Source: a virus. From it: a stretch of DNA of 39,863 bases. The position numbers were made by a program, and so were the translations under genes. The notes under the pieces are model-generated. The model ran no database searches. It was not told the DNA's origin and was given only the letters and a program-made list of their open reading frames with translations. The DNA lies in the IMG/VR virus record IMGVR_UViG_3300045988_016972; one strand, written 5' to 3'. This document shows positions 3,365 through 32,292 of the stretch, piece by piece. How positions within the stretch are numbered: position 1 is the stretch's first letter; each line of letters starts with the position of its first letter.

Positions 3365-4455
3365 GCAACTGCATTAAATGCGGAACAACTCTTGTCCCGG
3401 GCGCCGTATATTGCCATCTCTGTGGGAAAAAACAGGTAACAGAGCGGCGCAAGGCTCTGAAACGCGCCAACGGAACAGGCTCGGTCTACAAGCTGACAGG
3501 CCGCAGGAAAGCCCCCTGGGTGGCCGCAAAGAACAGGGTGGTCATTGGGTACTACGAGCGCAAAACGGACGCACAAGCGGCCTTGGAGCGGCTGAACGGC
3601 AAGAGCCTAACGGATAGGTACAACATGACCTTTGCCGAAGTCTTCGATGCTTGGAAAGCAGAGCATTACAAAGAGATCGGCAAGCAGGGGATAGAATCAT
3701 ATAACAACGCCTACCGCATATTTACGCCGTTGCACGGAAAAAAGTTTCGTGATCTCCGCACCGCAGACTTCCAGGCCGTACTTGACCCACACATGGCCAA
3801 GAGCCATTCCACCGTGAACAAGTACAAGCAGCTCATAACGCAGATGTCGAACTGGGCAATCCGAGAGGAAATCTGCACAACAAATTTTGCAAAGTTTGTC
3901 CGGCTTCCAGAAAATGTAAAAAAAGAAAAGGACATCTTCACGGAGGAAGATATCCGTAAATTGGAATCCGACAACAGCGATGCGGCGAAAATTGTCTTGA
4001 TGCTGCTGGCAACGGGTATGCGCATCGGGGAACTGTTTTCCCTGCCGCTGGCTGACTGTCACGGTGATTATGTAATCGGCGGCGAAAAAACCGAAGCCGG
4101 CCGAAACAGAATTATCCCCATTCGGCCGGAGGGGAAACAGTACTTTGCCTACTTTGCGAAGCAAGCAACGGGGGAGCTGCTGTTATCCGGCTACGATGGG
4201 CAAAAAGTCCCAGCGAACTTCCGCAGGCGTGATTTTTACCCGCTTCTTGACAGGCTGGGAATAAAGCGCAAGACCCCGCACGCAACACGCCACACATACG
4301 CGTCCCGGGCGGTAAAAGAGGGATTGCCCCCGGAAATGCTGCAAAAAATACTCGGACACGCCGATTATTCCACCACCGCAAACATATATACGCACATCGA
4401 CGCGCAGACACTTGTGGATGCTGTTACTAACACGTTACTAACAAATAAAAAATAA
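3361..4455 (+). CDS. int: Tyrosine integrase with an N-terminal zinc ribbon and an arm-binding domain
   Basis: ATGA overlap with the upstream stop. CIKCG...CHLCG is followed by GSVYKLTGRRKAPWVAAK (arm-type domain). The catalytic context is ATGMRIGEL, HATRHTYAS and LGHADYSTTANIYTH. Confidence 0.9.
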   Translation: MSNCIKCGTTLVPGAVYCHLCGKKQVTERRKALKRANGTGSVYKLTGRRKAPWVAAKNRVVIGYYERKTDAQAALERLNGKSLTDRYNMTFAEVFDAWKAEHYKEIGKQGIESYNNAYRIFTPLHGKKFRDLRTADFQAVLDPHMAKSHSTVNKYKQLITQMSNWAIREEICTTNFAKFVRLPENVKKEKDIFTEEDIRKLESDNSDAAKIVLMLLATGMRIGELFSLPLADCHGDYVIGGEKTEAGRNRIIPIRPEGKQYFAYFAKQATGELLLSGYDGQKVPANFRRRDFYPLLDRLGIKRKTPHATRHTYASRAVKEGLPPEMLQKILGHADYSTTANIYTHIDAQTLVDAVTNTLLTNKK

Positions 4456-10650: not shown

Positions 10651-14319
<3,669 letters not shown>

Positions 14320-30143: not shown

Positions 30144-30797
30144 TTACGCAGACAGACGCTTTGTGTTTGTCTGCATAATGAACTCTTTTACTTGGTCATA
30201 TCCCCATCCGCAGTCTACAAGACCGCTCACAAGGCGCTCCATAGACTGCACAGCAGTCAGTTCATCGGAAGAAAAGCAATCACGCGGATTCCCTTTTGTA
30301 TCAAGGCCGTATTCCTCCCGCAGTTGTTTTGCGTCCTTGCCAAATAGCGCCTTGTAAATACAGTTCGTATAGACGGAATATGCGTGCCCGTGCATACGGT
30401 CATTTTCTGCGGACTGCTGCAGTGCTTTTGTCAGAGCATGCCGTACCGCTACGCCTTTTTCTCTTTCGATCAGTTTCCCGCGCAACGCAGCTTCCATCGC
30501 ATTAAACTGCTTTATGTACGCTTCCTTAAATTTCATGGCAAGATCACCGGTATAACTCATCGCGAGAATGGTAAATCCATCCCTTGTCATAAAATACATC
30601 GGCTGCTTTTTACCTTGCGCGTTATCGTAGAAGGACTGCCCAAAATTGGACAGTCGAAAATCTTCACTGCAGCCCAATTCGCGTATGTCTCTTAAAACAT
30701 GCCTGTGGTCTTTGCCAAATGTTTCAGAAACATCAAGGCTTGTACACACCGCGCGATCTTCCTTCCCGACTTTCATAATTTCTACCAGCATTTTCAT
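30144..30797 (-). CDS. Rha-family phage regulatory protein with an additional C-terminal domain
   Basis: AVCTSLDVSETFGKDHRHVLRDIRE...FTILAMSYTGDLAMKFKEAYIKQFNAME is the Rha N-terminal signature. Start is at ATG 30797 or 30791, after a GAAAGGA ribosome-binding site. Confidence 0.75.
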   Translation of the reverse strand: MKMLVEIMKVGKEDRAVCTSLDVSETFGKDHRHVLRDIRELGCSEDFRLSNFGQSFYDNAQGKKQPMYFMTRDGFTILAMSYTGDLAMKFKEAYIKQFNAMEAALRGKLIEREKGVAVRHALTKALQQSAENDRMHGHAYSVYTNCIYKALFGKDAKQLREEYGLDTKGNPRDCFSSDELTAVQSMERLVSGLVDCGWGYDQVKEFIMQTNTKRLSA

Positions 30798-31297
30798 CAA
30801 TCCTTTCTCGTTGATTTTTGTTTGGCAGACTATTTGGGGCACATCCCTTGCAGCGGTATGCCAGCGCATTGTTTGTGCGGCATCGCAGTCCTGCCCTGCT
30901 TTAGCGCTTCAGGGAAAGTCCCCGTCACTCGCTGTGGTCTCCCCTTACGGGGCACCTATGCCGCATATTGTCCGTCTGCCAGCGCATCGCCTGTTGTTTT
31001 ACACAATCGGTCGGGTGCCACCACGCATCAATACTGTCCTACACAGCGGCTTTGTCCTAAGACAACCGCCACCACACCACATCCGCGCCTCGGATTTCTC
31101 TCAAGCACGATGGTACCCAGACCGGCCACGGAACTTTTCAGCCCTGCGCCGGTACGTCGGTCGCATCCGTTTCTTCATTCATAGCCGGAGCCAGCCAAAT
31201 AATTATTATTCGTCCTGCCGCTTTCGTACAGCGCACAGGAAAGACCACTTTCGCAGGCTTACGCTCCGTGCGGCTACGAGGCAAGAGGTCACGCCTA

Positions 31298-31374
31298 TGG
31301 CAGGGACGGTTGGGAATCGAACCCACCCAAGCGGTTTTGGAGACCGCCTCGCCAGCCTTGGAACATTCGCCCCT
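31298..31374 (-). tRNA. tRNA-Trp(CCA)-like element with a non-canonical D arm
   Basis: Acceptor AGGGGCG/CGTCCCT. Perfect anticodon arm GCGGT-CTCCAAA-ACCGC. T loop TTCGATT, discriminator G and CCA. The D region (AATGTTCCAAGGCTGGCGAG) has no 4-bp stem, and the T stem has an extra or mismatched position. Confidence 0.5.
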
Positions 31375-31557
31375 GTATCCCGCGTTTACGGATTCGTCAC
31401 GGAGCCTCCTCCGCGTTCTAAGTAACGCTCGATTCAACGCGGGCAAATCGAACGGCCCTTCGCGGAGCCACGCCCTGCTGACGGGACAAATCTGGACGCA
31501 TCCTGCCGGTAATGGCTTCCCGGCTTTGAGCCCCTGTACGCTGTCAGCTTTGGGTCT

Positions 31558-31650
31558 TGGTGCAGACGGCTGGACTCGAACCAGCGACCAATGGCATTCA
31601 ATCGCATATCCATTTGCGCGATAAAGCTCTACCGACTGAGCTACGCCTGC
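31558..31650 (-). ncRNA. tRNA-like element (93 nt) lacking a canonical anticodon arm
   Basis: Acceptor GCAGGCG/CGTCTGC, D arm GCTC-AGTCGGTA-GAGC, T arm GCTGG-TTCGAGT-CCAGC, then A-CCA. Forty nt lie between the D and T arms instead of about 23. Confidence 0.55.
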
Positions 31651-31813
31651 ATATAACAACAGCCCATAGGTTTCCCTACAGGCTGTTTGTGCCGGTACGC
31701 CCGTTCCCGGGGCCGCTTGCGCGGTGCGCCCAATACCGGCGGCGCATAGAAGGGAGGAAAAGTGATGATTGGGAAATCGCGTGAATGACCATGTCCTATC
31801 ATCCACTGTACCT

Positions 31814-31822
31814 ATTGTAGCA
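31814..31822 (-). promoter_or_regulatory. Extended -10 promoter element TGCTACAAT at the 5' edge of the ncRNA locus
   Basis: Read on the minus strand 6 nt after the stop of the RinA-like gene. The -35 is poor. Confidence 0.35.
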
Positions 31823-31827
31823 CATCA

Positions 31828-32292
31828 TTAGGCGGAATCTGTATCACCTTTCACGAGTAACCCTGCATATTTCGCTACATCATGCAGAAATCTTTCCTTC
31901 CTCCGGCTGAATGTTGCCTCGCTAATCCCAGGAATCACGATCTTGTTGCGAGAGTATTTGTGCTTGCCCTGGCAGTTGCGCATAATTCCATATATTAGCT
32001 GCCGCCGGATTGTATCGCTGCCGATATCTCTGCCGCAGCGGTCTATAGCGTATTCCACCGCCAGCATCTTCTGCGTCTCCGGCCATCGCTCTATGGCGGC
32101 CAGCTGCTCCGCCTTGCTCTCGGCGGGTCTACCAGCGCCCGATCCAGTTGGCATGCCCTCTGTAGCGCTATGCGTCCCGCCCAGGATATCCGCCCGGGCC
32201 TCTCGATACGCCCGCACCCGGCGCGGATACCCACGCACATAAGCAATGCACTCTAACCGCACGTCATAAGGCAGTGTCGCCTTTTTGCTCAT
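31828..32292 (-). CDS. RinA/ArpU-like late transcriptional activator
   Basis: 154 aa. The N-terminal segment ...CIAYVRGYPRRVRAYREARADIL and the C-terminal HTH-like ISEATFSRRKERFLHDVAKYAG parallel the RinA layout. Confidence 0.5.
   Translation of the reverse strand: MSKKATLPYDVRLECIAYVRGYPRRVRAYREARADILGGTHSATEGMPTGSGAGRPAESKAEQLAAIERWPETQKMLAVEYAIDRCGRDIGSDTIRRQLIYGIMRNCQGKHKYSRNKIVIPGISEATFSRRKERFLHDVAKYAGLLVKGDTDSA

Follow-up and report, generated by a model that had tools for sequence, protein, structure and literature searches.

The 39,863 nucleotides of viral DNA filed as IMG/VR virus record IMGVR_UViG_3300045988_016972, referred to here as the window, contain about 1 kb of minus-strand sequence (30798-31827) between the gene for a 154-amino acid (aa) protein and the phage gene rha. 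This region raises the question of whether its hairpins and tRNA-shaped elements belong to one large RNA or to several. The initial annotation took it for a single ornate non-coding RNA of about 1 kb. Comparison with about 150 related viral contigs, whose loci carry labels such as L002, L003 and L016, answers otherwise: the region is a row of separate RNA genes, and its pieces occur separately and in other orders in relatives. Another part of that annotation, RNA structure beside phage tRNA genes, is upheld: the structure is conserved and is supported by covariation in the pairing tests on the B1 covariance model R1 and on the RNA named C. Based on these comparisons, we give a probability of about 0.55 to the reading that the region is a co-transcribed array, in which tRNA and tRNA-like units would serve as processing punctuation for the release of stable RNAs.

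Modular Organization of the Array

The cassettes of the array were found by mapping window segments onto all fetched loci. Along the minus strand, the window carries a structured leader, the tRNA-like element oddT, the spacer RNA Spc, tRNA-Trp, B1, the tRNA-like RNA C, and the 5′ untranslated region (UTR) of rha, which is named Tail. The order is leader, oddT, Spc, tRNA-Trp, B2b and B1 in L016; tRNA-Gln, C, B2, oddT and tRNA-Trp in L003; tRNA-Trp, B2b, C and B1 in L066; and B1, C and B2 in L076 (B2 and B2b are described below), and B1 is followed by Tail without C in L117 and L113. In L266, one of the contigs reached through homologues of the 154-aa protein, the leader is followed by a cassette X, C, tRNA-Trp and then a gene, and B1 is missing. 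The contigs reached in this way keep the leader and have different arrays downstream of it. B1 is also found without leader, Spc or C, and the leader is also found in loci without B1. Because the cassettes recur apart and in permuted order, a single co-evolving 1-kb RNA is ruled out.

The cassettes are tightly packed. The gaps between oddT and Spc, Spc and tRNA-Trp, and tRNA-Trp and B1 are all 0 nt in the window, and every cassette adjoins a tRNA or tRNA-like end. A search of the neighborhood within 6 kb gave no constant protein partner. The cassette X is about 100 nt long and hairpin-rich (GCCGUGCGCUCG...CCCACACGGCAC, L266 3636-3745) and lies between leader and C in some relatives; a sequence resembling X precedes oddT-type elements in L002.

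A short repeat is found at several of the junctions. Both copies of the 11-nt repeat reported by the initial annotation are present, and the repeat is actually a 14-mer with the consensus ATGCGCTGGCA[G/T]AC, whose two window copies bracket C. The first copy (ATGCGCTGGCAGAC, 30974-30987, minus strand) is located in the B1-C linker and the second (ATGCGCTGGCATAC, 30856-30869, minus strand) at the start of the Tail cassette. Tail itself (30798-30855, minus strand) contains the ribosome-binding site (RBS) GAGAAAGGA at 30801-30809 ahead of the rha start codon ATG at 30797. L117 and L113 have one copy of the 14-mer and no C, which is an empty site; L076 reads B1, 14-mer, C and B2, and L091 reads C, 14-mer and Tail. 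The 14-mer marks cassette junctions. A target-site duplication around C is not required by these data, as the 14-mer also stands unduplicated at other junctions (L076 and L091), and it was kept only as an option.

Coding Potential and Hairpin Density

The region is non-coding and co-directional with the flanking genes, as had been proposed. Neither the 222-aa open reading frame (ORF) at 31138-31806 nor the 259-aa ORF antisense to it has a Pfam or PHROG match. No coding frame in the region is credible. B1 has no conserved ORF: its core is invariant at all codon positions, insertions and deletions do not come in threes, and a short ATG-initiated ORF changes frame between relatives. In L267 and L268, a 149-aa ORF at 3491-3940 in the public gene calls runs over the array of leader, C and tRNA-Trp, downstream of the homologue of the 154-aa protein. 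This call is probably spurious and caused by the RNA array, like the window ORF 31138-31806.

The density of hairpins noted in the region is real. Six GNRA-capped hairpins with stems of at least 4 bp lie in 30798-31827, compared with 0.79 ± 0.9 in mononucleotide shuffles, none of 500 of which reached six. This is an enrichment of about 7-fold, and the mean of the window is 1.19 per 1030 nt. All ten sequence motifs listed by the initial annotation were recovered on the minus strand where it had placed them, including the extended -10 box TGCTACAAT, the junction at 31691-31740 and both ATGCGCTGGCA copies; how their proposed pairings fared is described with the respective cassettes.

The B1 RNA

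B1 (31002-31297, minus strand) is a structured RNA of about 295 nt, and its first base directly follows the CCA of tRNA-Trp. Its 5′ domain is variable and lineage-specific. Two hairpins, CCUGU..GCAGG (31214-31239) and GGCUGG..CCGGCU (31183-31196), are present in all B1 lineages with differing sequences. They are followed by an invariant core of 46 nt, AACGGAUGCGA...GGGCUGAAAAGUUCCGUGG (31126-31171; in full, AACGGAUGCGAnnnnnnnnnnnnGCGCAGGGCUGAAAAGUUCCGUGG), then by a long-range helix (31105-31124 with 31008-31026) that encloses an inner hairpin (31046-31069), and the RNA ends with GAUUGUG (31002-31008), all on the minus strand. The long-range helix is 15-20 bp long and pairs the segment after CCGUGG with the segment before the 3′ CUGUG; its sequence is entirely different in at least nine lineages.

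The pairing was assessed with the covariance model R1, which comprises the B1 core and 3′ domain and has 175 positions and 40 pairs. R1 found 82 full-length matches in the 93 sources searched, at most one per source, and its window match (31002-31171) scored 192 bits. In the R1 alignment, 91.1% of cells pair, compared with 31-48% when the partners are slid by 1-3 columns; as the alignment was fitted to the model, this percentage is inflated. The variety of pair types is not inflated in this way, and many of the pairs that change show 4-6 different types. Changes on both sides were observed at 27 of the 40 pairs, among them every one of the 14 in the long helix and six of the nine in the inner stem-hairpin, and no shuffle reached any of these measures. 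Some pairings did not survive: the helix AUCCG/CGGAU in the 3′ domain was dropped because it pairs in only 65% of cells, a pairing between the upstream CCA and the invariant GG that follows CCGU, with covariation of the discriminator, was rejected as mixed when judged by eye, and pairing of the 3′ CUGUG tail with the CA|NNN junction was rejected for lack of covariation. The hairpin CTGC-GAAA-GTGG of the initial annotation is present as a sequence; it competes with a covarying helix, CGYAG/CUGCG.

The position of B1 relative to tRNAs is also conserved. Its 5′ neighbor could be classified automatically in 62 of 94 distinct contexts and was a tRNA in 39, C in 16 and an oddT-type element in seven; the junction was NCCA|B1 in all but two of the 62. 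Nearly all of the remaining 32 contexts show, by eye, a T-arm and then an NCCA or NCAA end. The tRNAs directly 5′ of B1 were assigned by ARAGORN to Gly, Trp, Met, Ser, Cys, Thr, Gln or Ile, and the same B1 start follows different units: UAGGCG is found after Trp, Cys, Gly, Thr and oddT, and GAUGUAUG after Trp, Met, Ile and C. The first B1 helix begins 1-2 nt after the CCA in every lineage, and a tRNA downstream of B1 starts 9-15 nt past its 3′ end. Our best guess is that B1 is a trans-acting RNA whose invariant junction (GGGCUGAAAAGU/CCGUGG/CUGUG) would bind a factor of tRNA or translation metabolism from the host or the phage.

A second RNA family, B2, was found in relatives. It is about 285 nt long (L003 2606-2890; also L127-L143) and occurs in 13 viral contigs. 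B2 shares with B1 only the junction motif GCUGAAAA..CCGUGG..UGUG, and a small hairpin replaces the 3′ domain. B2 was rejected as a homologue of B1, since R1 gives only 10.9 bits over this motif: the motif is held in common and the family is not. The 3′ two-thirds of B2, named B2b, also occurs alone, directly after tRNA or tRNA-like ends that read ACAA rather than ACCA.

tRNA-Like Units and the Spacer RNA

Both tRNA-shaped elements proposed by the initial annotation are real, as indicated by ARAGORN and, for oddT, by Rfam; one of them is an ordinary-looking tRNA-Trp. The other, oddT (31558-31650, minus strand), is a 93-nt tRNA-like element that ARAGORN reported as tRNA-Ala(cgc) and that scored 46.8 bits against the Rfam tRNA model (cutoff 29). 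Its acceptor, D and T arms are normal, and its ACCA end is encoded. Its anticodon arm has 34 nt compared with 17 in the model and lacks the canonical 5-bp stem and 7-nt loop. Elements of the oddT family share the acceptor (GCAGACG/CGUCUGC, then ACCA), the D arm and the T arm, running from GCAGACG to CGUCUGCACCA, and their anticodon domains are unrelated sequences of about 20-40 nt, mostly without a recognizable 7-nt anticodon loop. Most of these elements could not decode. The insert of oddT may form a pseudoknot from AUCGC/GCGAU (31618-31622/31601-31605) and AAUGG/CCAUU (31610-31614/31590-31594), the latter of which is changed to AAGGG/CCCUU in L003-type oddT copies. RNase P, 3′-end enzymes and the CCA-adding enzyme recognize the acceptor and T-arm part of a tRNA.

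The tRNA-Trp gene (anticodon CCA; 31298-31374, minus strand) was detected by ARAGORN, has an encoded CCA end and a candidate anticodon loop, CUCCAAA, and recurs in more than nine related loci. Its best match in the Rfam clan is tRNA-Sec at 36.8 bits, under the cutoff of 47, and it is absent from the list of matches at gathering threshold. It is slightly atypical in its 6-bp anticodon stem, its G.U-rich D stem and the irregular junction of T stem and acceptor.

C (30872-30965, minus strand) is a cloverleaf tRNA-like RNA with a four-way junction. An 8-bp closing stem, UGCGGCAU/AUGCCGCA (30958-30965/30876-30883), encloses three arms, including CCCC-GUAA-GGGG. Its tail is ACAA in the window and ACCA in most copies. 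In total, 41 copies (35 distinct) were found at varied array positions. The cloverleaf pairs in 96.6% of cells, compared with 32-49% in slid alignments, and six pairs change on both sides.

Spc (31375-31557, minus strand) is a structured spacer RNA of 183 nt that exactly fills the gap between oddT and tRNA-Trp. Its helices include GCUGAC/GUCAGC (31543-31548/31477-31482) and CCCGCGUU/AACGCGGG (31436-31443/31379-31386). Seven distinct copies of two subtypes were found, in which sequence blocks and long-range helices are conserved and internal hairpins are swapped; in other loci, Spc is flanked by different tRNA or tRNA-like units. The 7-bp helix CCGCGTT/AACGCGG of the initial annotation is present, but it is lost in half of the Spc subtypes, and the distal CCCGCGUU/AACGCGGG is kept instead.

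Leader and Promoter-Like Box

The extended -10 box TGCTACAAT (31814-31822, minus strand) directly follows the stop codon of the 154-aa gene. Its pattern TGnTAnAAT is kept in most leader-bearing relatives despite the divergent 3′ end of the upstream gene, and the L003-type box GGTGTAAAAT is one base off. A consensus scan of the minus strand of the region found no -35/-10 promoter and no strict intrinsic terminator, the latter in agreement with what had been noticed before. The extended -10 box may act as the promoter of the array.

The structured leader (31651-31790, minus strand) consists of a CU-rich tract (31748-31764), a closing stem GCCGGUA/UACCGGC (31734-31740/31691-31697) around two GNRA hairpins, and a GAAA-capped hairpin followed by GUUAUAU. 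The terminal hairpin had been proposed with a 12-bp stem; it is present, with a stem of 13 bp (31658-31687). The leader follows homologues of the 154-aa protein in 13 related contexts and in five further contigs reached through those homologues. Its inner arms vary or are replaced. The closing stem and the terminal hairpin persist, and compensatory changes preserve their pairing: L082 has UGCGGG/CCUGCG in place of UGUAGG/CCUAUG, and in arm 2 CUC/GAG alternates with CCC/GGG. The GUUAUAU tail of the window fails the terminator scan, and the L003-type relatives have UUUUUAU at this place. A pattern scan with CCGCGCAAGCGGCC proved too unspecific and gave mostly chance matches; a context filter was applied afterwards. 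The order of the elements resembles a late promoter, then a leader and then a terminator, which is put forward as inference only.

Several further observations concern the leader. Its CU-tract at 31751-31763 (ACUUUUCCUCCCU) could pair at 11 of 13 positions with the invariant loop of B1 at 31133-31145 (AGGGCUGAAAAGU), both on the minus strand. This pairing is probably not a required contact, as the tract is kept in loci without B1. The ACUUUUCCUCCCU tract also resembles the anti-Shine-Dalgarno tail of 16S rRNA and, on the plus strand, reads like a strong RBS ahead of an ORF of 7-8 codons, the peptide of which is not conserved. UACCGGC, the 3′ strand of the closing stem (within ACGGGCGUACCGGCACA), recurs in Spc at 31505-31515 (CCAUUACCGGC) and in the B1 core at 31148-31154 (ACCGACGUACCGGCGCA), all on the minus strand. 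Either a motif common to the three cassettes or an alternative partner for the leader GCCGGUA could account for this.

Relation to Known RNA Families

Gut-phage tRNA islands are a known home of enigmatic structured RNAs, among them ROOL, GOLLD and theta ribozymes. The initial annotation considered the families ROOL and GOLLD or a new class. At the gathering threshold of Rfam 15, only tRNA matches the region. At E ≤ 10, a search of 30600-32000 gave no ROOL, GOLLD, HEARO, raiA, tmRNA, intron, hepatitis delta virus (HDV), hatchet, twister or other self-cleaving ribozyme. Likewise, 12 related loci yielded nothing beyond tRNAs at gathering threshold, and the B1 region of L009, the most divergent B1 lineage, had no match at E ≤ 10. 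A literature search with the 18-mer of the core gave no match in the library searched. The new-class part of the proposal thus holds, as no Rfam family other than tRNA fits: B1, C, Spc and oddT are new families relative to Rfam 15. They may overlap with the catalogue of Fremin et al. (2023), which has 10,006 RNA candidates without names.

Phage Setting and Relatives

The window belongs to a temperate siphovirus in which nearly every gene lies on the minus strand, including all of those from about 39.8 kb down to 7 kb, and the integrase lies on the plus strand. The gene order on the minus strand is DnaC-like, methylase, the 154-aa gene (31828-32292), the gap, Rha (30144-30797), TerS, TerL, portal, tail and lysin. 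The Rha protein matches Pfam PF09669 (E 1.3e-31), and TerS, TerL and portal lie directly downstream of it; the gap is at the boundary of early and late genes. The name RinA-like, which the initial annotation gave to the upstream gene, is not supported. The one annotation of the 154-aa protein is a weak PHROG match to a transcriptional activator (E 9e-4), and none of its 159 homologues has an informative name or a Pfam domain.

The 18-mer GGCTGAAAAGTTCCGTGG of the B1 core occurs in at least 119 IMG/VR contigs. The corresponding 22-mer was found in only four species-representative genomes, all of them metagenome-assembled genomes of Oscillospiraceae, Oscillibacter or Eubacteriales. Oscillospiraceae appear to be the hosts. 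Three uncultured phages from human faeces that share pieces of the region were identified by BLAST in phage records; in two of the three, the segment 3′ of tRNA-Trp is about 81% identical and the upstream tRNA is different. On balance, we place the array at the start of the late (packaging) operon in a temperate siphovirus that would infect gut Oscillospiraceae, a placement somewhat favored by these data.

Two other features lie elsewhere in the window. A full-length FuFi-1 RNA (Rfam RF02986; 93.3 bits, cutoff 59.6) lies at 1177-1443 on the plus strand, near the integrase end, and has no relation to the array. A tail-region protein of 1222 aa (10651-14319, minus strand) contains collagen triple-helix repeats (Pfam PF01391, 3e-37), which are typical of some Firmicutes phage tail fibers.

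A Model of Processing by tRNA-Like Punctuation

The proposal that the tRNA-like modules act as processing punctuation was made in the initial annotation and fits the comparative data best, given that each cassette adjoins a tRNA or tRNA-like end. It builds on the modular anatomy, conservation, RNA-level covariation, flush junctions and shuffling of the cassettes described above. In this model, transcription would probably start at the extended -10 box just past the 154-aa regulator gene. The transcript would run through the leader with its terminator-like hairpin, then through oddT, Spc, tRNA-Trp, B1 and C, and finally into the rha-terS-terL mRNA. The tRNA and tRNA-like elements keep the acceptor and T-arm "top half" and usually an NCCA end. 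Because only the parts read by tRNA-processing enzymes are kept, these units would serve as punctuation, with their 5′ ends cut by RNase P and the NCCA ends by the 3′-end machinery. Spc and B1, and also C, would thereby be set free as separate stable RNAs, Spc and B1 with extensive folding, and the late mRNA would gain a defined 5′ end.

Several points weigh against the model. The promoter, the co-transcription, the processing by RNase P and 3′ enzymes and the stability of the products are all inferred from sequence. Bacillus RNase Z is inhibited by an encoded CCA, which leaves the cutter at NCCA| in doubt. The leader hairpin could stop most transcripts, the flush packing could be mere genome compaction, and the shuffling of cassettes could reflect selfish mobility rather than function.

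Alternative Explanations

Among the rivals, the most interesting one holds that B1, and perhaps also Spc and B2, are cis-acting processing ribozymes that cut their own 5′ ends and free the CCA of the tRNA, as large functional analogues of the theta ribozymes. The flush NCCA|B1 junction and the use of one B1 start behind many different tRNAs favor it, and the combinations of tRNAs with B1 mirror the pairing of tRNAs with theta ribozymes (PMC10879173). The first helix close behind the CCA and the absolutely invariant core point the same way; moreover, a structured trailer would block exonucleolytic 3′ trimming, so that an endonucleolytic cut is needed. Nevertheless, we regard this explanation as unlikely. 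No Rfam ribozyme matches at E ≤ 10. A nested double pseudoknot (P1, P1.1, P2, P3 and P4, with the catalytic C in J4/2) was not found with the Rfam HDV-type models at E ≤ 10; a home-made HDV-like descriptor applied to the three tRNA or tRNA-like 3′ junctions gave chance-level matches only, and the loop of the first B1 hairpin, with 8-10 nt, is too short for P2 and P3. Unrelated cassettes adjoin tRNAs in the same way, which makes the adjacency not specific to B1, and about 295 nt is far above the size of known self-cleavers. An HDV-type cut would also leave a 2′,3′-cyclic phosphate on A76.

A broader formulation is that B1 and its sibling cassettes are a new class of large RNAs acting on the adjoining tRNA 3′ end. 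They would be either cis-cleaving ribozymes that make CCA-OH, a structurally unrelated counterpart of the theta ribozymes, or the cargo of a cassette exchange that joins modules at NCCA, with oddT-type elements and C as handles. We consider this a speculative proposal with a small chance of being right.

Similarly low is the probability that the region serves chiefly to regulate the late operon in cis as its 5′ leader. Junction and hairpin would then form an antitermination or attenuation switch under the 154-aa protein, and the rest would be passenger tRNAs and spacers. The box, the leader and the hairpin with its U-rich tail always directly follow homologues of the 154-aa protein, the hairpin has compensatory changes and a good U-tract in L003-type relatives, and the position is the early/late boundary. 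However, this explanation covers 31651-31822 only, and B1, C and Spc are conserved with covariation in leaderless loci and in other gene contexts. The inner arms of the junction are not conserved, the U-tract of the window fails the terminator scan, and the 154-aa protein has no recognizable domain.

It is still less probable that the cassettes are selfish or neutral, whether as mobile RNA-gene modules or recombination scars that spread among phage tRNA arrays and do nothing for the phage, or as DNA sites (pac/cos or recombination). Their shuffled order, the 14-bp direct repeat around C with the empty site in L117 and L113, and the location just upstream of the terminase genes would be explained; however, the compensatory changes across at least nine lineages and the invariant 46-nt core indicate that selection acts on a folded single strand rather than on sites in duplex DNA, and the repeat is unduplicated at other junctions (L076 and L091).

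The least probable explanation, already largely refuted, is that the whole region of about 1 kb is a single large ornate RNA of ROOL/GOLLD type or of a new class with embedded tRNA-like domains: the phage setting, the tRNAs inside the region, the density of GNRA hairpins and the split of B1 into a conserved 3′ and a variable 5′ part, as in GOLLD (PMC12286853), agree with it, but there is no ROOL or GOLLD match (E ≤ 10 in the window and L009, gathering threshold in 12 relatives), the cassettes are independent and permuted (B1 without leader, Spc or C, and leader without B1), and the long-range pairs proposed between cassettes are not conserved, among them GGCACC/GGTGCC, whose sequences are present and whose unsupported pairing would join two independent cassettes.

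Significance and Comparison With Known Systems

The locus adds four families that are absent from Rfam: a cloverleaf tRNA-like RNA, a structured spacer RNA of 183 nt, tRNA look-alikes reduced to the "top half" read by processing enzymes, and an RNA of about 295 nt that shows very strong covariation and is carried by more than 100 contigs of Oscillospiraceae phages. Together, these arrays suggest that phages may cut one transcript into many stable RNAs by means of tRNA-like handles, and such a handle system may explain the clustering of structured RNAs with phage tRNAs. In practical terms, gene callers put probably spurious ORFs over such arrays.

In lambda (Q, pR′, 6S RNA and tR′) and in HK022 (put), a late regulator gene is followed by a promoter, a short structured leader, a terminator-like hairpin and the late genes. 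The same layout is seen here, restricted to 31651-31822; the 154-aa protein differs in having no sequence or domain similarity to Q.

ROOL and GOLLD, which phages and prophages encode beside tRNA islands, are highly structured RNAs that form many GNRA-type contacts and are not known to have a function; the phage and tRNA context is shared by the present locus. ROOL RNA has a conserved architecture of several pseudoknots and is about 580 nt long. The array differs from both families in that no covariance model matches and that its units are shuffled cassettes of 90-295 nt, compared with about 580 and more than 800 nt. The division of B1 into conserved and variable parts is comparable to that of GOLLD, in which the 3′ region is conserved, the 5′ region varies and a linker can contain tRNAs; both ROOL and GOLLD were found by cryo-EM to form nanocages (PMC12286853).

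Theta ribozymes are small, minimal HDV-like double pseudoknots located within ±1 nt of the 3′ end of gut-phage tRNAs, in many combinations of tRNA and trailer, and a role in tRNA 3′ maturation was proposed for them; about 90% belong to Bacteroidota phages, and CCA is encoded in only 4.5% of their tRNAs (Kienbeck et al., 2024, PMC10879173). B1 is similar in that it begins at a tRNA or tRNA-like 3′ end in all 62 automatically classified contexts. It differs in its length of about 295 nt, in its occurrence in Oscillospiraceae phages and in its position almost always behind an encoded CCA.

The use of tRNAs as punctuation or handles is established for mitochondrial transcripts and for MALAT1-mascRNA, and the tRNA cluster of T4 contains the stable RNAs "species 1 and 2", whose function is unknown. 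The present array resembles these systems in that non-tRNA RNAs lie between tRNA or tRNA-like units of what would be one transcript, with ends that would be set by tRNA enzymes. It differs from them in that oddT and C are new sequence families of putative handles, and in that typical spacers are much smaller and less conserved than its cargo RNAs.

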